This document shows positions 1,845-45,731 of a stretch of DNA of 61,915 bases, one piece after another (the stretch's first letter is position 1; each line of letters begins with the position of its first letter). The notes under the pieces were generated by a model. The model was not told the DNA's origin, searched no databases, and saw nothing but the letters and a program-made list of their open reading frames with translations. A program made the translations under genes and the position numbers. The stretch comes from Minisyncoccia bacterium (GTDB lineage Bacteria > Patescibacteriota > Minisyncoccia > Phycocordibacterales > UBA918), in contig JBGSJJ010000011.1 in the NCBI GenBank assembly GCA_041742075.1, forward strand, positions 1-61,915. The letters are read 5' to 3'.

Positions 1845-1917
1845 GGAACTTCCCTTTCGGTCTGCCAGGAGTTTATCCTTGGTCAGGACGTAGGCGTGTC
1901 GACATTGACACCCAGTA

Positions 1918-1946
1918 AATATAACATATGTTAACACATATGTCAA
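1918..1946 (-). promoter_or_regulatory. sigma70-like promoter (TTGACA, 17-nt spacer, TATATT) immediately after the duplicated tRNA-Gln tail
   Basis: The minus strand reads cagcaagTTGACAtatgtgttaacatatgtTATATTtac. It points into ORF 1392-1844. Confidence 0.6.
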
Positions 1947-1950
1947 CTTG

Positions 1951-2083
1951 CTGCCGGTCAGGGAATCTCTCTTGTTACACAAGCAGTATACCTTTTGGCT
2001 ATATTTTCGCTACGCTCAATCTAGCTCAAAAGCTTTTCGAGCCCCTGACGCGAGTGACATATTAGTCACTCGCTATCTGGCAG
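1951..2083 (-). repeat. tRNA-tail mimic element, type 1 (Gln copy; candidate structured RNA)
   Basis: The minus strand reads, in order: CTGCCAG (anti-acceptor), hairpin GCGAGTGAC-taatat-GTCACTCGC, GTCAGGG (anti-T-stem), CTCGAAAAG, P2 CTTTTG...CAAAAG, GTATACTG, hairpin CTTG-TGTAA-CAAG, then CCCTGACCGGCAG. That last segment copies the tRNA-Gln 3' end with one change. Confidence 0.8.
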
Positions 2084-2126
2084 CTCTAAAGCAAAAATCC
2101 CCTATTCGGGGATTTTATGCTAAGAG

Positions 2127-7917: not shown

Positions 7918-8017
7918 TAGATTGCTCCTCTACCCAAAAAGTTTCTTGAGCGCCAGGCTAACCGTCTGGTGCTTTTTTTATATACCTACAACAATGCAAA
8001 ATACGAACAGCGAATAC

Positions 8018-10400: not shown

Positions 10401-11285
10401 ATGACTTATCCTATTTATTCCCTTTCGCCTCGGGAATTTCCGACCTCAGGACTGGGTTTACTGACGGAAATCCCCCAGCCGCCAAAGTCTCTTTATTACC
10501 GTGGAGTACTTCCTCCTTCAGAAATTACCCTACTTACCGTTGTCGGTTCACGGAAGTACAGCACGTACGGTAAGCAAGTAATCGATCACCTCATTGGTGG
10601 ACTTCGCGGATATCCGGTTGGAATTGTCTCTGGTCTAGCGCTTGGCACTGACTCGCTGGCGCACGAAGCTGCACTAGCAAACAATCTATACACCATGGCA
10701 GTTCCCGGCAGTGGCATACAGGACGACACGCTCTACCCAAGAACAAACCACGGACTTGCTAAAAGAATCCTTGAACGAGATGGGTGTCTCTTATCTGAGT
10801 TTCCCCCTGAGACCAAGGCTGCTCTTTGGACCTTCCCGCAGAGAAACCGGATTATGGCAGGTCTCGCACCGGCTACCCTCATTATCGAAGCCAGTGAAAA
10901 GTCGGGCACGCTCATCACCGCCCGGATGGCGACTGACTACAACCGCGAACTACTGGTGGTACCAGGAAATATTTTTTCCAAGAACACCGTCGGTCCACAC
11001 CAATTTTTAAAACTCGGCGCAACGCCTGTTACCAGTGCAGTCGATATCTTATACGCGCTAGGGATTGACCCGGAGAACAACACCAAGAGTAGCCAGGCAA
11101 ACATATATAAAGACCTTAGCCCTGAGGAGCTTTTGGTTATTGAGCTCTTAGTCGAGCCGACCGAAAAGGACGAACTCATTAGAAAGTTGAACCTGCCAGC
11201 GCCGGTTCTAAATGTGCTGTTAATGCAAATGGAAATCAAGGGTTTAATCGCTCAAGAACGAAACCAGTACCGGGCTGTTATTTGA
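10401..11285 (+). CDS. dprA: DNA-processing protein DprA/Smf
   Basis: VVGSRKYSTYG, IVSGLALGTDSLAHEAAL, GTLITA. It sits directly upstream of topA, the usual synteny. Confidence 0.9.
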   Translation: MTYPIYSLSPREFPTSGLGLLTEIPQPPKSLYYRGVLPPSEITLLTVVGSRKYSTYGKQVIDHLIGGLRGYPVGIVSGLALGTDSLAHEAALANNLYTMAVPGSGIQDDTLYPRTNHGLAKRILERDGCLLSEFPPETKAALWTFPQRNRIMAGLAPATLIIEASEKSGTLITARMATDYNRELLVVPGNIFSKNTVGPHQFLKLGATPVTSAVDILYALGIDPENNTKSSQANIYKDLSPEELLVIELLVEPTEKDELIRKLNLPAPVLNVLLMQMEIKGLIAQERNQYRAVI

Positions 11286-17155: not shown

Positions 17156-17237
17156 GCCTCGGTGGCGGAATTGGTATACGCGCACGACTCAAAATCGTGT
17201 ATCGCAAGGTGTGAGGGTTCGACCCCCTCCCGAGGCA
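17156..17237 (+). tRNA. tRNA-Leu (anticodon CAA), class II with a long variable arm
   Basis: Acceptor GCCTCGG/CCGAGGC, anticodon stem CACGA/TCGTG, loop CTCAAAA, T-arm GAGGG-TTCGACC-CCCTC. Confidence 0.9.
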
Positions 17238-17246
17238 CAAAATTCA

Positions 17247-17275
17247 GAGTCAGACTTTTGTCTGGCTTTTAATTT
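17247..17275 (+). terminator. Rho-independent terminator after tRNA-Leu(CAA)
   Basis: AGTCAGAC-tttt-GTCTGGCT followed by TTTTAATTTT. Confidence 0.65.
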
Positions 17276-17279
17276 TGTT

Positions 17280-17377
17280 GGAGGGGGTTGAAAACCTTTT
17301 GAGATAGATTTGACTGAAAGGAAAATATATCCAAAAGGTGTACTGAAGTAGTAAACTTCGACCCCCTCCCGAGGCAC
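17280..17377 (+). repeat. tRNA-tail mimic element, type 1 (Leu-CAA copy 1)
   Basis: GGAGGGGGTTGAA (antisense of the T-loop/T-stem), P2 CCTTTTG...CAAAAGG, GTGTACTGA, hairpin GAAGT-agtaa-ACTTC, then TTCGACCCCCTCCCGAGGCACAAA. The last segment is 24 nt identical to the tRNA 3' end. Confidence 0.85.
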
Positions 17378-17440
17378 AAATTGACAAGTCGTAATTAATG
17401 GTGAATCGGGAGGCACAGCTTTTTTGCTAAAAAAAGCGTT

Positions 17441-17520
17441 GTGCGGGGTCGAAGCCGTTGCCAGTTGCCTGCAACGTCAACGGGTACTGAAACTGTAAGT
17501 TTCGACCCCCTCCCGAGGCT
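17441..17520 (+). repeat. tRNA-tail mimic element, type 1 (Leu-CAA copy 2, short core)
   Basis: GTGC-GGGGTCGAA, P2 CCGTTG...CAACGG, GTACTGA, hairpin GAAAC-TGTAA-GTTTC, then the tail CGACCCCCTCCCGAGGCT (one mismatch to the tRNA). Confidence 0.8.
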
Positions 17521-17600
17521 CAAAATTTAAAGTCGGACTTCTAATTGCACTTTAGTGAAAATACTTTACACTTTGACCTGAACTGAACAGGAGAATAAGT

Positions 17601-19906: not shown

Positions 19907-19912
19907 TTATTT

Positions 19913-20023
19913 TGCGAGGTCCACGAGGATTCGAAAAGCTTTTGAGATAGATTTGACTGAAAGGAAAATATATCCAAAAGGTATACTGGTCATGTAATGA
20001 CCGAAACTCCTCGTGGGCCCGCA
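19913..20023 (+). repeat. tRNA-tail mimic element, type 1 (Trp copy)
   Basis: TGCGAGGTCCACGAGGA is a near-complete antisense of the tRNA-Trp 3' end. It is followed by TTCGAAAAG, a core 44 nt identical to the Leu-CAA copy, TATACTG, hairpin GGTCA-TGTAA-TGACC, then TCCTCGTGGGCCCGCA (identical to the tRNA tail). Confidence 0.85.
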
Positions 20024-20096
20024 GTAGCAAACAAAACAAACCAGAAGCGCGAGCTTCTGGTTTGTTTTGTTTAGAACGAGCACTTCTGCTCGTTCG

Positions 20097-20278
20097 GCTA
20101 CTGCGGGAGCCGGAGCGGTGTGAGCTTGCGAACCGCGAGGCGGGGTCGCGAGCGCGAGTGGCGACGAGCGACTTGTGACCGCAAGGGAGGTCCACGAGGA
20201 TTCGAAAAGGTTAACTAATATTTTGTGACGCAGGAGCAAAAATATTGATAACCTGTACTGATACTGTAAGAATCGAAA
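20097..20278 (+). repeat. Variant tail-mimic element: inverted copy of the preceding tail, a GC-rich junction module and a type 1-like core, but no 3' tail
   Basis: GCTACTGCGGG (20097-20107) is the reverse complement of CCCGCAGTAGC (20018-20028). It is followed by AGCCGGAGCGGTGTGAGCTTGCGAACCGCGAGGCGGGG, then GGTCCACGAGGATTCGAAAAGG, P2 GGTTA...TAACC and TGTACTGA...TGTAA. Confidence 0.65.
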
Positions 20279-20287
20279 TACTAAATT

Positions 20288-21553
20288 TTAGCTACCATAA
20301 ATCGAGAAGTGTGGGGCTGATATCCAATCACCTAAAACTTTGATATCAGCAGGATTAACTCCGCCAGCTACCAGCTGGTCACGTTGACCACTTGTTACTA
20401 CTTCATACACAGGACGAAGGCCATTCGCTCGAGCAGCATTAATGACTGTAAGTACTTCTTGAGCGTTCATCCCACCCGCCTTACTATAGTCAACGCACGT
20501 TCCATTCATATGGCACTGACTTTTGTGTACCCGTGACGGAGGCATCGCTTCTGTTACCCGCGAACCGATTACCCCAGCTGACACAATATCGGAATGAAAG
20601 GCATTAAATCTACCAACCAAATCGGGAGCAATTGAACAGCTATTTGAATTTGAGCAGGGTACGTTAAGTGGTACACAGGTGCCACCACTGCAACCCTGAC
20701 TCTGAATAGGGTCTTCATCAGTACCACCACCTGGGTCAGTGGTACAGAAGCCACCAATGGTAGAATTCCCTGTCGGCGGAGTCCAAACTCCTCTCATAAA
20801 TCTACAAGTCTCAACGGCTCCGCTACAATCAGCTACCGCGTCAATTCCGCCACCAGCAAGACACGTAATCGGTACTTGATTTGGTCGTCCCACTGCCCCT
20901 TCACGAATACACGTTACCTGGTTATTTTCTGAGATGTCGGCATCGAGGCGACCTCGAATACACGCTTCTACTGCCGGCTGACAGTCAAAGGAGTTAGTCA
21001 AAATAACAAAGAGACATTGAGTGGTCTGATTCAGTTGACCGACTGGCCCTTCTTCAAAGTTAAACCCAAGGTCTTCAAGCGTTGCTCGAGTATTATTAAA
21101 GTCAATTCCATTCCTGTCACTCTCGACTGGTTCCGGTCGATAGATCTCCCCACACTCAACTGGTTCCCAAACACCATAATCACTTCCCGTTAAAGCTTTC
21201 ATGATAGTGTCAACAATTGTCCACGCAGCGACCAGTAGTATCAATCCAATCATGGCATTAACAAAATACGTCTTGGCGTTTTCATACGCCGACTGGTTCC
21301 CGGCTGAAGTCACGAGACCAAAACCAGCATACGCCAACACCATCACAATGAGCAGAATCGAAATGGTAACAATCCAGTCAACGATGACGTCAAACAACTC
21401 GACAAATAAACAAAAATTACAATCTGTTCCACTACAGGTCACTAAGCCGGCAGGTCCGCTGTCTTGCCCAAACGCTATACTTGGAAATAAAAATAGAAAA
21501 AAAACTAACACTGAAGGGATTTTCATAAGATTGTATAATTTTATAAAATTCAT
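20288..21553 (-). CDS. secreted/membrane fusion protein: pilin-like (VirB2/TrbC-like) N-terminal domain, Cys-rich linker and a LAS/M15-like zinc peptidase C-terminal domain
   Basis: Signal peptide, CSGTDCNFC, two TM helices and YGVWEPVEC. The C-terminal HMNGTCVD (H-x6-D) and APHF resemble VanY/M15 D,D-peptidases. Confidence 0.6.
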   Translation of the reverse strand: MNFIKLYNLMKIPSVLVFFLFLFPSIAFGQDSGPAGLVTCSGTDCNFCLFVELFDVIVDWIVTISILLIVMVLAYAGFGLVTSAGNQSAYENAKTYFVNAMIGLILLVAAWTIVDTIMKALTGSDYGVWEPVECGEIYRPEPVESDRNGIDFNNTRATLEDLGFNFEEGPVGQLNQTTQCLFVILTNSFDCQPAVEACIRGRLDADISENNQVTCIREGAVGRPNQVPITCLAGGGIDAVADCSGAVETCRFMRGVWTPPTGNSTIGGFCTTDPGGGTDEDPIQSQGCSGGTCVPLNVPCSNSNSCSIAPDLVGRFNAFHSDIVSAGVIGSRVTEAMPPSRVHKSQCHMNGTCVDYSKAGGMNAQEVLTVINAARANGLRPVYEVVTSGQRDQLVAGGVNPADIKVLGDWISAPHFSIYGS

Positions 21554-21580
21554 AAAAAATATTTATTTTAATCTAAATCG

Positions 21581-22093
21581 TCACGGTTGCTTGCAAAACG
21601 TTAGATCAAATCTTCTACCTTGATAATCAGGATTCACTGAGTATGGCACACCTATATATACATTAAGCTTGCAGGCGTCGACATCTGAAATCTGAAGTAG
21701 TTGCGAAAAGTACCGGCTTGCCAACTCATGATTTAAAGCTATTGGCTCATTTTCAATAGCGATTGAAAATGAGTTATCTATCTCTGAATAAAGAAGTGAA
21801 AATGGAGCATCTGGGTCCCCTACCTCTCCTCTAAGGTGATAAAAGCCTTCTCCAGGTTTTGTAACTTCAGGCAGTGTGCGTATATCAAAGATTTCTATCA
21901 CTCCCGCATCGGTAGGTATAAGGGTTGTGTATGGATCTTCACTTTCTGGACGTTCTACAGTACCAAGATCTTCTAGATCTGTATACCCTGAATTTTTATC
22001 TTTCTGAGAAGTATCCATAAAATATTGAAAAATAATTGTTCCTAAAACAAGAACGGTGATAGTACCAAGAGCTAAGATTAGTATTTTTTGCAT
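21581..22093 (-). CDS. membrane-anchored hypothetical protein
   Basis: MQKILILALGTITVLVLGTIIF anchor. The start was set at the internal Met so it does not overlap the upstream gene. Confidence 0.5.
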   Translation of the reverse strand: MQKILILALGTITVLVLGTIIFQYFMDTSQKDKNSGYTDLEDLGTVERPESEDPYTTLIPTDAGVIEIFDIRTLPEVTKPGEGFYHLRGEVGDPDAPFSLLYSEIDNSFSIAIENEPIALNHELASRYFSQLLQISDVDACKLNVYIGVPYSVNPDYQGRRFDLTFCKQP

Positions 22094-22101
22094 ATTTAAT
22101 A

Positions 22102-23229
22102 CTATTGTAACCCACAACCAGCCGCTGTTGACCATGGTCTCCAGCTATTTCCGGCCTCACGATAAATACGAGCTCCGTTTCGAATGTTACAGGCATGATT
22201 TTGTGCAGCTTCAGCACACTGCTGGTACAAGGCTTCGTTTATTACCACAGCGTCATAGTTACGACCAGAAAAAGCGTCGAGACAACGCATTGTAGCTGGG
22301 TAGCCGGGACAGTCTCGGAGTTCATGTACCGTGAGATTGATCTGCATTGGTCCAAAAGAGAAGGCTCTTCCGTCTACTCGCATTACGTCTGTTCTACTCA
22401 CTCCTGAAGCACCGCACGAACTTTCTGCTTCAATAATACACTGAGCATTACCAGTGTTGCTTCCAAAAAATGGTCCAATAACAGAAGTACTGCAAGCCCC
22501 ACCCGCTGATCGATCAGGGGGCCGTCTTCGGTCTGAAGGAAGTACTGAAACATCATTGGTTATAACACACTCAAACTGTCCAAGACCTTCGCCTGCTCTA
22601 ATTTGCCCCCCTTCCGCACGACACCAGTCAATACAGCCACCCGGAACAGCTGTAACTTCATCTGGACAATCTATCACATCAAAACCTCCCGCAATAAGCC
22701 TGTCTCTTGGCGTAACGCGAAGTTCATCGATAATCCAACCGCAATTAAGTCTTTCAAATTCAGGCGGTGGTAAGTCAGGATTGGTACAAGAAACCAAGTC
22801 AATACCCTGTCTATCACTTTCAAACTCCTGAGGTTCATAAGCACTCTGGTCAACACACTCAACACTATTCCACACGCCATACTCTCCCTCCCTGAGCAAA
22901 CCTTTCAAGACAGTATCAACAATAAGCCAAGCCGCGAGTGCAATTACAATCCCGAGCGCAAGGTTTGAAATAGTTTTCTTAATAAACGTTAAACCATTAT
23001 CATTACCCATTGAAGTAACCGAAACCAGTCCAGCGTACACAATTGCCACCCCAGCCAAAATAGCGAGCATACTAATGAGCCACGTCATCACGTTGCTAAT
23101 GAGTGGAATAATGTGACAGGTCTGACACGCTTCCTCACCGGGATTTCCACATGGCACGAGATTAGCTGAGAAAACAGACTCTGGGACAAGAGCACACGCT
23201 ACTAAAAATATGAACGCGATATACCGCAT
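22102..23229 (-). CDS. secreted/membrane fusion protein: pilin-like N-terminal domain and a lytic-transglycosylase (SLT/lysozyme-like) C-terminal domain
   Basis: Signal peptide, CGNPGEEACQTC, two TM helices and YGVWNSVEC. The C-terminal IIEAESSCGASG...SFGPMQINL matches the E-S...G-x-MQ pattern of family-1 lytic transglycosylases. Confidence 0.6.
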   Translation of the reverse strand: MRYIAFIFLVACALVPESVFSANLVPCGNPGEEACQTCHIIPLISNVMTWLISMLAILAGVAIVYAGLVSVTSMGNDNGLTFIKKTISNLALGIVIALAAWLIVDTVLKGLLREGEYGVWNSVECVDQSAYEPQEFESDRQGIDLVSCTNPDLPPPEFERLNCGWIIDELRVTPRDRLIAGGFDVIDCPDEVTAVPGGCIDWCRAEGGQIRAGEGLGQFECVITNDVSVLPSDRRRPPDRSAGGACSTSVIGPFFGSNTGNAQCIIEAESSCGASGVSRTDVMRVDGRAFSFGPMQINLTVHELRDCPGYPATMRCLDAFSGRNYDAVVINEALYQQCAEAAQNHACNIRNGARIYREAGNSWRPWSTAAGCGLQ

Positions 23230-23547: not shown

Positions 23548-23631
23548 GCGTCGATGGCGGAGTGGTCAATCGCAACAGACTGTAAATCTGTCGGACATCG
23601 TCCTACGAAGGTTCGAATCCTTCTCGGCGCA
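23548..23631 (+). tRNA. tRNA-Tyr (anticodon GTA), class II
   Basis: Acceptor GCGTCGA/TCGGCGC, stem ACAGA/TCTGT, loop CTGTAAA, long variable arm, T-arm GAAGG-TTCGAAT-CCTTC. The terminator ATACCC...GGGGTATTTT follows. Confidence 0.9.
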
Positions 23632-23728
23632 CTTTTTAAAATACCCTTATTTATAGGGGTATTTTGTTGAGACAGAACAACTGGTTAGAACCTTTGCTAT
23701 ATTTAATCTTTTGGACTAAGATTTGGAC

Positions 23729-24382
23729 ATGAAAAGTGATTACCAAGAAAAACTCACCTCCCTATCCTCTCACGTTTCTAAAACTCTATTAAAATGGCAG
23801 GGTTTTAAAAAAAGAAGAAACGCATTCAATCGAAAATTGGACGGCGGAATAGTCCAAATAATAAGTTTCCAAGCTGGCAGTTACGAGCCATTTGCTATAG
23901 ACGTCCCAAACATGAACTACTTCCCTAACAGTTTATATGGAAAGTTTACAATCAACTTAGGAATATACATTGATGATTTACAAATTTTCATGCATGGTAA
24001 GAAACCAAAAGATTTTGTAAACGAATACGATTGCCAATTGAGAACGAGAGCTTCACACTTAGTTACCTCAACAGATGAATGGATTTCAATTGATAAAGAT
24101 TTCGATAAATTATCGAAAGAAACTACTAATCTAATTGAAAAATATGCACTACCTTTTCTAGATAGGTTTAATTCAAGAGAAAAAATAGAAGAATATTTTA
24201 AAACTGAAGGGACTACATTAACTAATATCCCTTTGGCATATTTAGCAATAATGTGCCATAAAGATGGTAACAATGAAGCAAGTTCTTCCTACATGAAAAA
24301 ACACATCGACTCAATCGTAAATCATGAAGGTCACAAAGAATATATGTTTGCGTTGGCTAAAAAACTTGGTCTGGATATTTAA
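23729..24382 (+). CDS. hypothetical protein (217 aa), AT-rich; the N-terminus resembles DUF4304-type proteins
   Basis: LLKWQGFKKRRNAFNRKLDGGIVQIISFQ follows the GFKK-x-GN-x-F-x-R...I-x-FQ pattern I recall for DUF4304 (from memory, unverified). The ORF is bracketed by GGTTAGAAC (23683-23691) and GTTCTAACC (24424-24432). Confidence 0.5.
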   Translation: MKSDYQEKLTSLSSHVSKTLLKWQGFKKRRNAFNRKLDGGIVQIISFQAGSYEPFAIDVPNMNYFPNSLYGKFTINLGIYIDDLQIFMHGKKPKDFVNEYDCQLRTRASHLVTSTDEWISIDKDFDKLSKETTNLIEKYALPFLDRFNSREKIEEYFKTEGTTLTNIPLAYLAIMCHKDGNNEASSSYMKKHIDSIVNHEGHKEYMFALAKKLGLDI

Positions 24383-24440
24383 CAAAATTTGGTAGAAAAC
24401 AGTAATCTGACTTAATAATCGCAGTTCTAACCTCTAGCAG

Positions 24441-24490
24441 TCCTGTGCACTTTTTAAAAACGAGCATCCACATTTGTGGGTGCCGTTTTT
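24441..24490 (+). repeat. Degenerate copy of the tRNA-Tyr tail plus downstream TTTTTAAAA and a terminator hairpin
   Basis: TCCTGTGCACTTTTTAAAAA compares with TCCTTCTCGGCGCACTTTTTAAAA at the tRNA, followed by GCATCCACA-ttt-GTGGGTGC and TTTTT. Confidence 0.6.
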
Positions 24491-24494
24491 ATTA

Positions 24495-24630
24495 GTGTGC
24501 CGAGAGTGAGTGACTCAATGTCACTCACGTAAAGATTCGAAAACCTTGCCTACTATTTTATGACGTTAGGAAATAAAATAGTGACAAGGTGTACTGAAGC
24601 TGTAAGCTTCGAAACTCCTTCTCGGCGCAC
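24495..24630 (+). repeat. tRNA-tail mimic element, type 1 (Tyr copy)
   Basis: GTGTGCCGAGA (anti-acceptor), hairpin GTGAGTGAC-tcaat-GTCACTCAC, GATTCGAAAA, P2 ACCTTG...CAAGGT, GTGTACTGA, hairpin GAAGC-TGTAA-GCTTC, then CGAAACTCCTTCTCGGCGCAC. Confidence 0.85.
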
Positions 24631-24635
24631 ATAAC

Positions 24636-24664
24636 TTGACAATACACTAGAAATGGTGTATTGT
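24636..24664 (+). promoter_or_regulatory. sigma70-like promoter (TTGACA, 17-nt spacer, TATTGT) 6 nt after the duplicated tail
   Basis: TTGACA 24636-24641, TATTGT 24659-24664. It points at ORF 24847-25236. Confidence 0.55.
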
Positions 24665-24846
24665 TTTGCATAAATCTAATCAGTATGGAGTCTGCTATGA
24701 GGTATCCCAGATAGCGGCTTCGGCTGCTTATTTTGTTCTTTTTCTTTCAAAAATCAAACCGCAACCCGCTCCCTATCAAATTCGTGATGGACCGCGTTCG
24801 GCCATAACCGCCGACCACCCATAACGAAGAAAGCTAGGAGCACAAC

Positions 24847-26059: not shown

Positions 26060-26264
26060 AAGGTTCGAACCTTCTCCAATCTATACAGATTCCTTACAGG
26101 AACTGTCCACTCATTGGACCTTATGTTTCGCTTCACTTACAAAAGTTCCTCAATGAGTCTTGCGACAAGCTCCCAGCTTGTCTCACTATTCAGGTTGTAT
26201 GATATTTTTGCAAAATATCGACAACTTCTTGCGACAGTTTCCCAAACTGTCTCACCCGGCGCAC
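26060..26264 (+). repeat. tRNA-Tyr T-arm copy, two tandem type 2 modules and an acceptor-tail copy
   Basis: AAGGTTCGAACCTTCTCC; then CCTTACAGGAACTGT, P2 ACTCATTG...CAATGAGT, CTTGCGA, hairpin CAAGCT-ccc-AGCTTG and TCTCA; then hairpin TTGTATGATATTTT/AAAATATCGACAA, CTTGCGA, hairpin CAGTTT-ccc-AAACTG, TCTCA and CCCGGCGCAC. Confidence 0.75.
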
Positions 26265-37134: not shown

Positions 37135-37154
37135 CAGCAACGAAGTTGATGAAT

Positions 37155-37254
37155 GGCGGGAATTGAAGACCTTGCGAGACAAGTTTGACTGAAAGGAAAA
37201 CATGTCCACAAGGTGTACTGAAACTGTAAGTTTCAATTCCCGCCCCGGCCTCAG
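37155..37254 (+). repeat. tRNA-tail mimic element, type 1 (Cys copy; minimal, no intervening terminator)
   Basis: GGCGGGAATTGAA (exact antisense of TTCAATTCCCGCC), P2 ACCTTG...CAAGGT, GTGTACTGA, hairpin GAAAC-TGTAA-GTTTC, then TTCAATTCCCGCCCCGGCCTCAG. The last segment is 23 nt identical to 37115-37137. Confidence 0.85.
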
Positions 37255-37611: not shown

Positions 37612-37650
37612 CAAAGTAAAAGCTAGGCCTTGTGTCTAGCTTTTTGCTTT

Positions 37651-37852
37651 GTGCGTGAGCTTGCGTGGGGTGGACTTGAAAACCTTGTGTGACAGATTCG
37701 ACCAGAGGAGAATATGTCCACAAGGTGTACTGAACCTGTAAGGTTCAAGTCCTCTTCTTACAGAAGCTGTATACCTTATCAGTATTCCTCGCTTCGCTCA
37801 GAATACTAGATAAGGTCTTGCAAAGTGCTCCCAGCACTTTTCACCCGCGCAC
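37651..37852 (+). repeat. tRNA-tail mimic element, type 1 (Leu-TAG copy 1), with its tail split by a nested type 2 module
   Basis: GTGCG-TGAGCTTGCG-TGGGGTGGACTTGAA, P2 ACCTTGTG...CACAAGGT, GTACTGA, hairpin GAACC-TGTAA-GGTTC, CAAGTCCTCT, then an 88-nt insert, then CCCGCGCAC. Confidence 0.85.
37756..37843 (+). repeat. type 2 module nested between the T-stem copy and the acceptor copy of the duplicated Leu-TAG tail
   Basis: TCTTACAGAAGCTGTAT, P2 ACCTTATCAGTATT...AATACTAGATAAGGT, CTTGCAA, hairpin AGTGCT-ccc-AGCACT, TTTCA. Same 88-nt length and same first 22 nt as 45644-45731. Confidence 0.8.
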
Positions 37853-37880
37853 AAAATAAAACGCCTTCGGGCGTTTTATT

Positions 37881-38025
37881 GTGCGCGGAGCAAACGATAG
37901 TTTGCGGAGAGGACTTGAAAAGATGGAGTATATCGCACGGAGTGAAATAGTCTGGGAGACTATTTCATCGAGTACGATACGACATCTGTACCGCTCCTGT
38001 AAGGAGAAAGATTCCTCTCCCACAC
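37881..38025 (+). repeat. tRNA-tail mimic element, type 1 (Leu-TAG copy 2, divergent core, degenerate tail)
   Basis: GTGCGCGG, hairpin GCAAAC-gata-GTTTGC, GGAGAGGACTTGAAAA (exact antisense of the tRNA 3' end), P2 GATG...CATC, TGTACCG, hairpin CTCC-TGTAA-GGAG, then ATTCCTCTCCCACAC. Confidence 0.7.
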
Positions 38026-38060
38026 AAAATTAAAAGCCAGGCTTTGTGTCTTTTAATTTT

Positions 38061-38078
38061 GTGCGTGAGCTTGCGTGG
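38061..38078 (+). repeat. Truncated 5' piece of another Leu-TAG element (GTGCGTGAGCTTGCGTGG)
   Basis: Identical to 37651-37668. It is cut off by the 3' end of trhO. Confidence 0.6.
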
Positions 38079-38085
38079 TGATGAT

Positions 38086-41156: not shown

Positions 41157-41504
41157 CTATACGGTTACGGTAAGACCAAACGTGCCAGCGGCAATACGCA
41201 GAATGGCGATAGCGGAAAGCATAATCACCATACCAATCACACCATAAAGCATATGGCGTTGCCCTTGTGAGCGGTCACTATAGCTACTGGCACCTTTAAT
41301 GTATTCAAACACGCCAAACATAAACACCGCAAAAGCGATTCCGAGCATTAGGGTAATCAGTGGGAAAACCAAGTTTGCTTCAAGACGCCCAACAAACTCT
41401 TGGGAAGCAGCGCGCGCTCTATCTTCGGCACTTTCAGCCAGCAAAAGAGAAGGGTACAAGAAGATTGTGAGCAAAAGTAATCGTAGGTGTTTCATAAATA
41501 TCAT
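41157..41504 (-). CDS. pilin-like small membrane protein (signal peptide and two TM helices; VirB2/TrbC-like architecture), divergent member
   Basis: Same architecture as the five paralogs downstream of it: signal peptide, TM, charged loop (KGASSYSDRSQGQRH), TM. Confidence 0.55.
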   Translation of the reverse strand: MIFMKHLRLLLLTIFLYPSLLLAESAEDRARAASQEFVGRLEANLVFPLITLMLGIAFAVFMFGVFEYIKGASSYSDRSQGQRHMLYGVIGMVIMLSAIAILRIAAGTFGLTVTV

Positions 41505-41561
41505 TAGCTAGTCCTTTAATTGTACTACACAGGAGATTTATAGTGACTCTTGTACACAAGT

Positions 41562-41921
41562 TTAGAAACCGGTAGTAGGGCCTTCTCCAAGGGAAGATAC
41601 AAATGAATCCAATATAAAATTAACAACACCCCAGATGGCTACTATGAGGACCAAACCAAGTACCCCCCACACCATAAGCGCCTTACCACTCTCCCGTGCC
41701 TCTTGATTGTCTGCGCCCGCAATAAAGTACCGAAAAATACCATAACAAAACACAAACACAGCCAGAGCAAATACGAGTGGTAGCAGGGTACTAGAAATAA
41801 AATCAGTAGCGCTCAAAAAAACCCGATTCAAACCTCCGAGATTATTAGCAGTTTGAGCAAAAGCGAGACTTGGAACAAGCAACGTAACTGTACCAAAAAG
41901 ACTACGTGGGATATGCTTCAT
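41562..41921 (-). CDS. pilin-like small membrane protein (paralog)
   Basis: AFAQTANNLGGLN...LLPLVFALAVFVFCYGIFRYFIAGADNQEARESGKALMVWGVLGLVLIVAIWGVVNFI. Confidence 0.65.
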   Translation of the reverse strand: MKHIPRSLFGTVTLLVPSLAFAQTANNLGGLNRVFLSATDFISSTLLPLVFALAVFVFCYGIFRYFIAGADNQEARESGKALMVWGVLGLVLIVAIWGVVNFILDSFVSSLGEGPTTGF

Positions 41922-42057
41922 ATATTATACCTACATTAAAGCATAGTCTAAGCAGACTGTAACAAACAATCTGAACACAACTTAAAACTCTTCTGCGAAA
42001 GCAGAAGAGTTTTAAGTAACAATTTTAGCCGGAAGGCGAAAGAGTTATAGTTTATAA

Positions 42058-42447
42058 CTATGCACCTGGAACAGTTGGAAGGTTTACACCTTGCCCATCG
42101 AGAGCAGTACCGCCTGTTGCGCCACTTAAGATATCGATCACGAGGTTTACAATACCCCATACCGCTACAATGAGTACTAGACCGAGGATACCCCAGATCA
42201 TGAGACTCTTGCCACTCTCTCGAGCTGCTTCGTCTCCACCACCAAGGATGAAGTACTTGAAGATACCGTATACGAATACGAGTAGAGCGAGTGCAAAAAC
42301 AAGTGGTAGAAGTGTGCTTGAAACAAAGTCTGTAATCGCAAGGAAAAAGTTGTTAAGACCACCAAGATCATCTGCTGTTTGGGCAAACGCAAATACTGGG
42401 AATAAGAAGACTGCTACAGGTGCTAAATAAGAAAATGATTTTTTCAT
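42058..42447 (-). CDS. pilin-like small membrane protein (paralog)
   Basis: AFAQTADDLGGLN...LLPLVFALALLVFVYGIFKYFILGGGDEAARESGKSLMIWGILGLVLIVAVWGIVNLVI. Confidence 0.65.
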   Translation of the reverse strand: MKKSFSYLAPVAVFLFPVFAFAQTADDLGGLNNFFLAITDFVSSTLLPLVFALALLVFVYGIFKYFILGGGDEAARESGKSLMIWGILGLVLIVAVWGIVNLVIDILSGATGGTALDGQGVNLPTVPGA

Positions 42448-42575
42448 AAACTAAATAAATATTAATAATTCCGACTTACTGGTAATGATAGCACCAAATT
42501 TTACGTAAACAAAGGCTCATTACACTGACTGTGTATAAGCTGTAATGGAGATTACAGGGAAAAGTGGGCTTGAAA

Positions 42576-42965
42576 CTAGACTGGCATCGCAGGCACATTT
42601 ACCGTGTTGTCAAACGGAGTAGCGCCGGTAGAGCTGTCAAGAACACTGATCACGAGGTTTACAATCCCCCATACTGCCACTATAAGTACCAAACCAAGGA
42701 TACCCCAGATCATGAGACTCTTGCCACTCTCTCGATCATCTTCGTTGGCGCCACCAAGGATAAAGTACTTGAAAATGCCGTAGACAAAGGCTACGAGAGC
42801 AATCGCAAACAGAAATGGCAATATGGTACTACCAAGAAAAGCGGTGATATTAAGGAAAAACGTGTTGAGTCCACCAAAAGCGGCAGCATCGCCTTGAGCA
42901 GCAAACACCATAAGGGGTGAAAGAATTGAAGCAATAACAGCTAAATGTAAAAATGTTTTTTTCAT
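42576..42965 (-). CDS. pilin-like small membrane protein (paralog)
   Basis: Start set at MKKTFLHLAVIAS. Contains ...ILPFLFAIALVAFVYGIFKYFILGGANEDDRESGKSLMIWGILGLVLIVAVWGIVNLVI. Confidence 0.65.
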   Translation of the reverse strand: MKKTFLHLAVIASILSPLMVFAAQGDAAAFGGLNTFFLNITAFLGSTILPFLFAIALVAFVYGIFKYFILGGANEDDRESGKSLMIWGILGLVLIVAVWGIVNLVISVLDSSTGATPFDNTVNVPAMPV

Positions 42966-42991
42966 ATAAGTATAATTATGGTAATCGTTGC

Positions 42992-43246
42992 CTAGTAAAA
43001 GAGACTCGACCGCAAGAGTTGCACCAGTCCCCAAAAGCCAAACATAACCACAAGACCAATAATAGTCGCTAAGAGCACCTGCTTCCCTTCTGAGACTTTT
43101 TTCTCGTCTCCACCATGGATAATCCAGATATTGATGATTTGCCATACTGCAAAAGCAAACGTAACGGCAAAGATAAGATACACGAGTGAATTCATTATCT
43201 CTAAGAAACGAGCGACGAGTCCAGCAAAGGTAGTTGGGGTTGGCAT
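42992..43246 (-). CDS. pilin-like two-TM protein without an obvious signal peptide
   Basis: LVYLIFAVTFAFAVWQIINIWIIHGGDEKKVSEGKQVLLATIIGLVVMFGFWGLVQLL. Confidence 0.55.
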   Translation of the reverse strand: MPTPTTFAGLVARFLEIMNSLVYLIFAVTFAFAVWQIINIWIIHGGDEKKVSEGKQVLLATIIGLVVMFGFWGLVQLLRSSLFY

Positions 43247-45479: not shown

Positions 45480-45643
45480 TTCTTTAAGTATACCTTGTCT
45501 GTTCGTAAAAAAACTGCACCGGGTGTGTAAAGAGCTTTGCTTATATAGTTTGCCCGACACGGATAGTGCCAAGCTCCCGCAGGACGCAAACGCGGTTCCT
45601 CCCTAGGCATATTTTCCTAAGCAAGACGCCAAGCGCCATTTCT

Positions 45644-45731
45644 TCTTACAGAAGCTGTATACCTTGTCAGTATTTTTCATTCTTCAAAATACTAGGCAAG
45701 GTCTTGCGAAGTGACATTGAATCACTTCTCA
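45644..45731 (+). repeat. type 2 module, orphan copy with no tRNA nearby
   Basis: TCTTACAGAAGCTGTAT, P2 ACCTTGTCAGTATT...AATACTAGGCAAGGT, CTTGCGA, hairpin AGTGA-cattgaa-TCACT, TCTCA, then CCCTGGTGGG. Confidence 0.75.

Follow-up and report, generated by a model that had tools for sequence, protein, structure and literature searches.

A widespread family of structured, target-matched repeats at gene 3' ends in Patescibacteria: candidate small non-autonomous mobile elements of tRNA genes

The segment from the T-loop to the 3' end of a transfer RNA (tRNA) gene is a classical sublocation of integration. Integrative elements that target tRNA genes, including the cis-mobilizable elements (CIMEs), insert in the T-loop region, supply a replacement tRNA 3' end and shift the old tail away, which then forms a direct repeat; in arrays of attL and attR sites the newest unit adjoins the tRNA. 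A second well-described model is provided by the attC sites and cassettes of integrons, including the clusters of attC sites lacking integrases (CALIN). These are hairpin sites at gene 3' ends, often located over the stop codon, that keep their structure and vary in sequence; they show a variable hairpin tip, a G^TT crossover, the newest cassette at the entry site and homogeneity within a genome. All of these traits recur in a repeat family that we describe here from contig JBGSJJ010000011.1 of a Minisyncoccia bacterium, a stretch of 61,915 nt that is referred to as the window throughout and in which a preliminary description had highlighted positions 17238-17521 behind tRNA-Leu(CAA). The family is new, widespread, structured, orientation-specific and polymorphic, and it is located at gene 3' ends. 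We lean, with modest confidence, towards the view that its members are small non-autonomous, hairpin-rich mobile elements that are specific for Patescibacteria and settle on gene 3' ends, above all on those of tRNA genes, where they insert into the T-loop with a replacement tail.

The locus behind tRNA-Leu(CAA) (17156..17238, + strand; ARAGORN and Rfam) illustrates the organization of the element. The part of this gene from the T-loop to the 3' end (X1, 17218-17237, +) is the target that is found repeated further downstream. It is followed by a terminator-like hairpin (17246-17269) with a T-run and the antisense of the trailer (together 17246..17279, +; terminator scan), the latter reading aattttgt (17271-17278, +), and by the reverse complement of the T-loop and the 3' strand of the T-stem (ggagggggttgaa; 17280..17292, +), designated arm b on the basis of the sequence and the arm-b statistics given below. 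The conserved core (17287..17360, +), which is supported by 71.3 bits in a covariance model and by covariation, comprises helix P2 with a bulged A and a variable apex (17294-17339), the motif GTACTG (17340-17345) and hairpin P3 with an AGTAA loop (17345-17359). The sense copy of the tail (X2, 22 nt; 17357..17378, +) begins with a TTC that is at the same time the 3' strand of P3. Folded as single-stranded DNA, the unit is predicted to form three hairpins in series (tail/terminator/antisense, P2 and P3; z = -5.8), and 17246..17279 represents the apex of the long hairpin between X1 and its antisense. A second copy follows at 17406..17521 (+, 53 bits in the covariance model) with arm a (17406-17413), an additional hairpin termed P1.1 (17414-17443), arm b (17444-17453), the core (17448-17504) and the sense copy (17501-17521).

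An exact-pattern scan of GTDB with one genome per species retrieved at least 120 loci, nearly all of them from Patescibacteria and with about six chance matches among those listed. The matches listed include Saccharibacteria, Nomura-, Kaiser-, Zambryski- and Taylorbacteria, Paceibacterota and Minisyncoccia; comparison loci were analysed as stretches of 8 kb (L numbers below denote such loci or contigs), the window as one stretch of 62 kb. With Rfam 15 at gathering thresholds tRNAs alone match, and at E<=10 and E<=1 no match was obtained over a core in two element-rich stretches. The phages of INPHARED and the plasmids of PLSDB contain no match, and the literature searched on Patescibacteria tRNAs, mobile elements, RNA motifs and integrons holds no description of the element. 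The novelty claimed in the preliminary description thus withstands the comparison with Rfam 15, INPHARED, PLSDB and this literature, and we are apparently dealing with an undescribed mobile-element family across Patescibacteria. A pattern scan of 2.9 million viral contigs of IMG/VR yielded one true match beside 23 chance matches. This sole "viral" locus (L008, IMG/VR UViG_3300000970_000154) has the element next to tRNA-Ser, harbors two tRNA-Ser genes in an ordinary Patescibacteria-like context and may be a piece of chromosome that was misclassified or part of a prophage.

The element measures about 100-170 bp, and its tRNA-type units are 120-170 bp long and non-coding. The core of about 75 nt consists of an AARACC junction, the long hairpin P2 with its bulged A and variable tip, the motif GGTRTACTG and P3, a hairpin of 4-5 bp with a TGTAA loop; in the consensus of 61 as well as of 117 copies, this whole succession is flanked by TCGAA and TTCGA. 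P1.1, a GAG-stem-loop-CG hairpin, is often found before the core and usually breaks the antisense arm at the acceptor/T-stem junction. The armless form is organized as GGTGAG-P1.1-CGCAAGACC-P2-GGTGTACTG-P3. In many copies (L064, L103, L079; 17312-17322 in the window) the tip of P2 reads GAG-(mini-hairpin, e.g. GCGAAGC or TCGAAAGA)-CGAA, which echoes the frame GAG...CG seen in P1.1 and would permit tandem sheared G-A pairs.

The covariation of P2 and P3 that had been noticed among the copies of the window is borne out on a much larger scale. In the 61 aligned copies of the covariance model, for which the P2/P3 structure was supplied by hand, pairing amounts to 86.5% versus 64.8% in shuffled alignments and the covariation score to 0.469 versus 0.127. 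In the larger set of 117 copies from about 100 sources, 89.4% of the cells are paired versus 63.6% after shuffling, with a covariation score of 0.564 versus 0.135, and in both sets none of 500 shuffles reaches the observed values. Double changes are present at 21 of 21 P2/P3 pairs of the 117 copies, pairing in P3 reaches about 97% and involves all four Watson-Crick pair types, and pairing falls to 36-54% if the partners are shifted by 1-3 columns. RNAalifold recovered unaided only P3 from a MAFFT alignment; P2 required the hand-given structure. The unpaired segments GTACTG, TGTAA and GAG...CGAA are very strongly conserved across the classes of Patescibacteria. GTACTG, previously regarded as invariant except for one GTACCG, reads ATACTG in the Gln and the first Trp copy of the window, and ATACAG occurs in two copies that had been missed.

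The relationship between the arms and the neighboring tRNA was investigated in 59 loci among the matches listed, all with a same-strand tRNA upstream, and the universal T-loop was excluded from scoring. In these loci the tRNA ends 70-250 nt upstream of the element and represents 18 or more isoacceptor types; only one copy has the opposite orientation to the tRNA tail, compared with about 59 on the same strand. The antisense arm scores 15.7 against the last 15 nt of its own tRNA and 10.4 +/- 2.7 against other tRNAs, the sense copy 19.6 and 9.6 +/- 2.8, respectively, and arm b is 92.6% Watson-Crick complementary to nucleotides 54-65 of the upstream tRNA in 54 of the 59 loci. Accordingly, the adaptation of both arms to the adjacent tRNA, initially seen in one genome, also applies to other genomes. 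The proposed clamp, designated P1, between the antisense arm and the downstream sense copy is, however, not the pairing that is preserved best: the true upstream tail with its genomic trailer is the better match in 50 of the 59 loci, and the downstream copy often resembles a decaying, displaced tail. Since the arm pairs best with the upstream tail, the predicted fold is a succession of three hairpins that leaves the downstream copy free.

The trailer provides a further clue. Among the 28 listed loci with a clear arm a, at least three of four genomic trailer nucleotides are complemented in 19, and CCA in a single one; CCA is encoded by five of the 59 tRNA genes. Guide-like pairing with the mature tRNA, one of the roles previously considered, is thus unlikely, given that the complementarity of the arm extends into the genomic trailer and not into CCA, and pairing in the manner of a primer-binding site was rejected with the same count (1/28). 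A terminator with a T-run is usually located between tRNA and element. Direct repeats of 17-45 nt that start at the T-loop flank the tRNA-type inserts, the overall range of repeat lengths being 0-45 nt, and in 24 of 29 well-preserved listed loci T54 of the copied tail lies 0-2 nt inside the 3' end of P3. The palindromic TCGA marks both the end point of the antisense arm and the start point of the sense copy. In armless copies the left flank is always ...GG, the same as that of the T-stem 5' strand preceding T54.

Evidence for mobility comes from a JGI metagenome contig (L148) whose rhodanese is 87% identical to that of the window and which harbors the same tRNA cluster. The tRNA-Cys site is filled in the window and empty in L148. 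Conversely, the tRNA-Lys site is empty in the window and filled in L148, with a 22-nt tail repeat and an antisense arm that is essentially missing, and the tRNA-Leu(TAA) site is empty in the window and occupied by four identical 167-nt units in L148. At tRNA-Leu(TAG) the window contains an old divergent copy and a younger unit between this copy and the tRNA, and L148 the old copy only. The swapped empty and filled sites at four tRNAs together with the tandem array indicate that the element is gained and lost, which supports the earlier proposal of a non-autonomous mobile module, here with small cassette-like arrays. In each filled site the flank beyond the downstream copy resembles the ancestral flank, and it is a new trailer and terminator that directly follow the tRNA; hence, the inserted unit starts within the T-loop and brings a replacement tail. 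The tRNA unit extends from T54 and comprises, in this order, the replacement tail, its own trailer and terminator, the antisense tail made up of arm a, P1.1 and arm b, and finally the core; the original tRNA tail appears to be pushed downstream, where it decays. New units enter beside the tRNA, and arrays grow outward from it.

Further signs of a dynamic history are found within single genomes. The four tandem units behind tRNA-Leu(TAA) (L148, 7000-7650) have the P3 loop GGTAC and not TGTAA, and this variant is also present in the tRNA-Lys copy of the same contig, which in terms of sequence points to homogenisation within the genome or to a recent burst. The core of this Lys copy is homologous to that of the first Leu(TAG) copy of the window, with compensatory changes in the outer P2. 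More generally, core, P1.1 or P3-loop variants are common to copies that serve different tRNAs of one genome; one example is a metagenome-assembled genome with related copies at different tRNAs (L030, L058, L064). A third relative (L149) lacks an intact copy in the tRNA cluster and has a decayed remnant behind tRNA-Lys (7930-8000). This remnant has lost P2 by deletion, retains a hairpin like P1.1, the trailer antisense and AAAAGGTACAG, and illustrates the erosion of copies. A decoy or sponge function, another of the earlier suggestions, is unsupported; the copies are polymorphic, occur amplified in tandem and have frequently decayed. When strain variants were sought by exact protein matches, ParB and rhodanese led to no contigs other than those of the same organism, which agreed with the window wherever they were compared, and MiaA had no record. 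One public contig of the same organism (L001, Logan SRR28170467) stops inside tRNA-Leu(CAA), and this end is consistent with repeats that break short-read assemblies at tRNA genes.

The element was originally thought to target tRNAs specifically, but protein genes, too, have copies with the same logic at their 3' ends, and there are armless copies as well. Copies occur at the last codons of rplK (L049, L078, L114) and other protein genes, where they follow the order gene end, antisense, core, gene end, and the duplicated end includes the stop codon. Among about 45 evaluable non-tRNA copies of the listed loci, 19 overlap with the stop region of a same-strand open reading frame (ORF), and several armless copies directly precede a Shine-Dalgarno sequence and start codon able to pair with the 5' flank. 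In L116 (7332-7600) a 44-nt copy of the start of a kinase gene flanks the element, and the spacer is located 3' of the core. The element of L141 (3872-4100) is inserted 11 codons short of the end of a Cys-rich ORF, and its removal would preserve the reading frame; in L071 and L141 the element merely substitutes the last few codons. An intron, prompted by the GGTGAG 5' end and the restored frame of L141, was considered and rejected, given that the gene start in L116 is duplicated and not split. Introns of groups I and II were discarded as well: the tRNA is complete without splicing, the core comprises only about 75 nt and just the last codons are replaced in L071 and L141.

For the spread of the element we infer a structure-specific cut-and-join reaction at G53^T54, behind the left flank ...GG, by an enzyme that would be encoded elsewhere in the genome. 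Its most likely substrate would be a folded single strand, in which the carried tail and the antisense arm form a long stem that presents the junction beside P2 and P3. The tRNA-specific versions could have originated from an armless element just behind a tRNA that was mobilised along with the tail of this tRNA, and they might then have spread without harm to the tRNA. The armless-type copy behind tRNA-Lys of L148 with its plain 22-nt repeat looks like an intermediate of such a capture.

Several observations weigh against this reading. The repeats range from 0 to 45 nt and the spacer of L116 is located on the other side of the core, so that one simple mechanism may not fit all copies. No transposase, integrase or HUH gene was found near the loci, and the catalytic step is hence purely inferred. 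The genomes with empty and filled sites differ by about 13% in one protein, and some sites may reflect deletion instead of insertion. The strong co-orientation with the upstream gene and the modest excess of G-T pairs suit an RNA equally well. Finally, tail capture leaves unexplained how the antisense arm is written and matched, and also why P1.1 is located exactly at the acceptor/T-stem junction, which looks like deliberate mimicry of a tRNA minihelix. It is also conceivable that the elements move by an as yet undescribed chemistry: a tiny non-coding unit would be retargeted by taking up each new target in sense and in antisense, its junction would be shown to a host enzyme of tRNA handling or recombination as an acceptor/T-minihelix look-alike, and spread would occur by natural competence. 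We offer this more far-reaching scenario tentatively and hold it to be rather doubtful.

In search of a linked helper enzyme, ORFs of at least 70 aa were clustered over 112 loci, and no family is present at more than 12 of them, the top families being housekeeping genes; no integrase adjoins any of these approximately 112 loci, no reverse transcriptase is linked to them, and Pfam identified no recombinase among about 30 ORFs of the window. The element is non-autonomous or reliant on ubiquitous host enzymes. The window harbors two clusters of type IV secretion system (T4SS)-pilin/TrbC-like genes (20288-23229 and 41157-43145) and a DprA gene (10401-11285). Their annotation suggests a DNA-uptake or transfer machinery that could supply single-stranded DNA.

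Instead of mobile DNA, the repeats might represent a functional structured RNA that is transcribed with or after the upstream gene and whose duplications are a side effect of its spread, an explanation that we consider unlikely. It could act as a mimic of the acceptor/T-minihelix, as a processing or stability signal or as a cis-antisense regulator of pre-tRNA 3' maturation, and armless copies could be regulators in the 5' untranslated region. This would agree with the location of several armless copies directly before a Shine-Dalgarno sequence and start codon, with the co-orientation of nearly all copies with the upstream gene, with the strong preservation of the unpaired motifs across classes and with P1.1 leaving the arm exactly where the 5' strand of the tRNA exits the acceptor/T stack. 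It is difficult to reconcile with the T-run terminator that usually separates tRNA and element, with presence or absence in close relatives, tandem amplification, reverse nesting and frequent decay, with an arm whose complementarity covers the genomic trailer instead of the mature CCA end, and with downstream genes that lack a common function; Rfam provides no match.

The pair census bears on both sides of this question. The core helices contain 2095 Watson-Crick pairs, 58 G-T, 45 A-C and 211 other combinations (87% Watson-Crick, 2.4% G-T and 1.9% A-C), and G-U is thus far rarer than in the tRNA stems (acceptor and T) of the same loci with 85 G-T versus 6 A-C, a ratio that is somewhat inflated because the selection step treated G-T as paired. 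If one subfamily-fixed C-A column is omitted, G-T exceeds A-C in the core (57 versus 26), as it does in arm b (14:3), in line with an RNA. This is a mild preference for the tRNA-sense strand, unlike the typical signature of an RNA. Together with the preceding terminator, the census favours a single-stranded DNA form or very recent templating, with RNA as a further possibility.

The direct repeat from the T-loop to the 3' end of the tRNA, the newest unit beside the tRNA and the growth of arrays by accretion are also what would be expected from scars of tyrosine integrases, i.e., CIME-like attL/attR remnants that prophages or islands have left in the T-loop region, with the core as an attP arm. 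Other insertions indeed use the same tRNA ends, as exemplified by a DUF4304 gene with a 13-nt repeat (see below). The origin of the whole family from such scars is nevertheless improbable: there is no integrase beside any of the approximately 112 loci, entire units comprise merely 120-170 bp, and armless copies have been inserted without an att-like repeat. Among the matches listed, one and the same core is located behind 18 or more tRNAs and behind protein genes across distant classes, and its P2 and P3 keep their pairing and not their sequence, which is not how protein-binding arm sites evolve.

Template switching during replication, with fold-back at the terminator and at P2/P3, microhomology at the TCGA of the T-loop, functionless arms and no dedicated enzyme, leaves the conserved 75-nt core across a phylum-level group, the presence of P1.1 within the arm, the strict orientation and the precise insertion of armless copies unexplained. 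We therefore regard it as very improbable, even if TCGA(A) closes the antisense arm and (T)TCGA opens the sense copy, the arm copies the trailer and continues without a break into the terminator stem, and the helices consist almost exclusively of Watson-Crick pairs. An RNA-mediated replicon or retro-element, whose core ribozyme would cut a unit-length and possibly circularised RNA out of tandem or read-through transcripts that is then copied back into T-loops, is the least credible scenario in spite of identical tandem units, unit boundaries at the same G^TTC on both sides and a predicted multi-hairpin, rod-like fold, considering that no reverse transcriptase is linked to the 112 loci, no known ribozyme family matches and G-U is rare. 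Likenesses to hammerhead and hairpin ribozymes, to box C/D and H/ACA RNAs and to attC failed on comparison with the consensus.

In the window, the pattern GTACYG-N3-8-DGTAA occurs nine times versus 0.77 occurrences expected by chance, and the covariance model detects 12 copies at E<=4e-4. The ten copies of the preliminary description are all in place, three more were found, and the total amounts to 12-13 copies; six of the nine tRNA genes have an element behind them. The common architecture proposed for these copies holds overall, but the second Trp copy is devoid of a sense copy and the antisense arm is often split by P1.1. The tRNA-Gln copy (1948..2087, -; sequence and covariance model) has its core at 1969-2041 (-); its arm a includes the antisense of the trailer CTCT, P1.1 and arm b are present, and the sense copy is interrupted by an insertion of 2 nt. 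The first copy behind tRNA-Trp (19909..20023, +) shows an unbroken antisense arm that includes the trailer (19909-19935), the core (19930-20003) and the sense copy (20002-20023), and the second one (20190..20275, +) arm b (20190-20206) and the core (20201-20275), its sense copy having been lost. The spacer between them (20026-20189) is rich in GC and hairpins in a window of otherwise lower GC; its GAGGCGGGGTCGCGAGCG-like motif is also present beside elements in L045, L102, L110 and L131 and may belong to another repeat family.

The tRNA-Tyr copy (24496..24630, +) consists of arm a (24496-24506), P1.1 (24507-24528), arm b (24529-24541), the core (24536-24611) and the sense copy (24608-24630). 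A DUF4304 gene (23723-24382; region 23620-24461) is located between the tRNA and this element and is bracketed by a 13-nt direct repeat (GCACTTTTTAAAA) that corresponds to the end of tRNA-Tyr and its trailer; from its borders, it looks like a second, different kind of insertion on the same tRNA tail. Strong promoter-like sites (TTGACA-N17-TATAxT) are located directly after the sense copy at about 1915-1950 (-) and 24636-24665 (+) as well as in L084, L054 and L123, and they face downstream small ORFs without a Pfam match. Two degenerate tandem copies upstream of a NYN-domain gene (26088..26260, -; 34.2 bits, core 26088-26165) have a variant core with TGGACAG replacing TGTACTG, which indicates that the family is broader than the search pattern used.

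The tRNA-Cys unit of about 120 nt (37136..37254, +) comprises a small hairpin, arm b (37155-37167), the core (37162-37235) and a 23-nt sense copy (37232-37254). Behind tRNA-Leu(TAG), the newest unit (37613..37755, +; core 37675-37747) has a new trailer with terminator, then arms a and b with a GTGAG hairpin between them, then the core and finally the first half of a sense copy. The latter had been described with an insertion; the sense copy is present, but its "insertion" is itself an armless element in reverse orientation (37756..37843, -; 58.3 bits and sequence; core 37752-37823). It splits the sense copy exactly between its T-stem and acceptor halves without target duplication, and this precise nested insertion defines the clean ends of the armless form. 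The older, divergent Leu(TAG) copy (37859..38085, +; core 37914-38008) has the GTACCG variant and a sense copy, and a further unit is represented by a stub (38037-38085). Another armless copy, GGGTGAG-P1.1-CGCAAGACC-P2-GTATACAG-P3 (45640..45745, -; 58.4 bits, core 45640-45709), is intergenic with genes of the same strand on both sides.

Much of the diversity of bacteria belongs to Patescibacteria, whose genomes are tiny and in which few mobile elements have been recognised; the window has 12-13 copies of one element in 62 kb. The element remodels the 3' flanks and terminators of tRNAs and occasionally the C-termini of proteins, and it breaks assemblies at tRNA genes; the covariance model allows annotators to mask or track the repeats. 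The combination of target-matched arms and a replacement tail in about 120 nt suggests a very economical and safe invasion of essential genes. In the more far-reaching scenario outlined above, which we hold to be rather doubtful, a self-programming, target-templated mobile element with single-stranded DNA or RNA as its substrate would have spread through an entire bacterial radiation. Provided that retargeting is templated, the element may be of practical interest for programmable insertion.

Among described elements, single-strand, hairpin-guided transposons with their non-autonomous relatives (the PATEs of IS200/IS605, the REPINs of REP/RAYT) and rolling-circle elements of the IS91/Helitron type share with the present family the lack of own terminal inverted repeats, subterminal hairpins and a strict orientation. 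They also have a short fixed target (...GG^T within the T-loop GTTC in our case, GTTC/CTTG for IS91), pick up adjacent host sequence, form tandem copies and include non-autonomous forms that are mobilised in trans. They differ in that they leave no long target repeats and have no antisense of the target; their sequences are not similar to the present family, and no Y1 or Y2 HUH gene was found in the 8-kb loci or the 62-kb window. The armless copies, with a ...GG left flank, no duplication and hairpins at both ends, compare well with IS200/IS605; the tRNA-type copies have long repeats. A classical miniature inverted-repeat transposable element was rejected, as the inverted arms differ per site and match the target and the repeat length is not fixed (0-45 nt). 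The Rickettsia palindromic elements, Correia/NEMIS, ERIC and RUP are likewise small, hairpin-forming, selfish non-coding repeats of reduced genomes located in or at gene ends including RNA genes, but neither their sequence nor their architecture is related to the present family, and arms rewritten per target gene are absent from all of them. Retroviral primer-binding sites, the T-box discriminator and the external guide sequences of RNase P resemble the element in that a stretch of them is complementary to a specific tRNA along its T-stem and acceptor 3' strand, and the succession arm a, hairpin and arm b recalls three-way-junction guides; here, in contrast, it is the trailer and not CCA that is complemented, in cis behind a terminator and with presence/absence polymorphism.

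The two models from which we started can be distinguished in a similar way. An assignment to integron attC sites was rejected because the consensus AARACC-P2-GGTRTACTG-P3(TGTAA) is devoid of R''/R' core sites. The R''/L''-L'/R' boxes (RYYYAAC...GTTRRRY) are missing altogether, two or three hairpins take the place of one, the copies lie scattered behind housekeeping genes, and IntI was not seen near the 112 loci or in the approximately 30 ORFs of the window. In comparison with CIMEs, the units are as short as 120-170 bp and have no adjoining integrase, armless copies occur without a repeat, and a single structured core serves 18 or more tRNAs as well as the ends of protein genes, combined with an antisense copy of the respective target.

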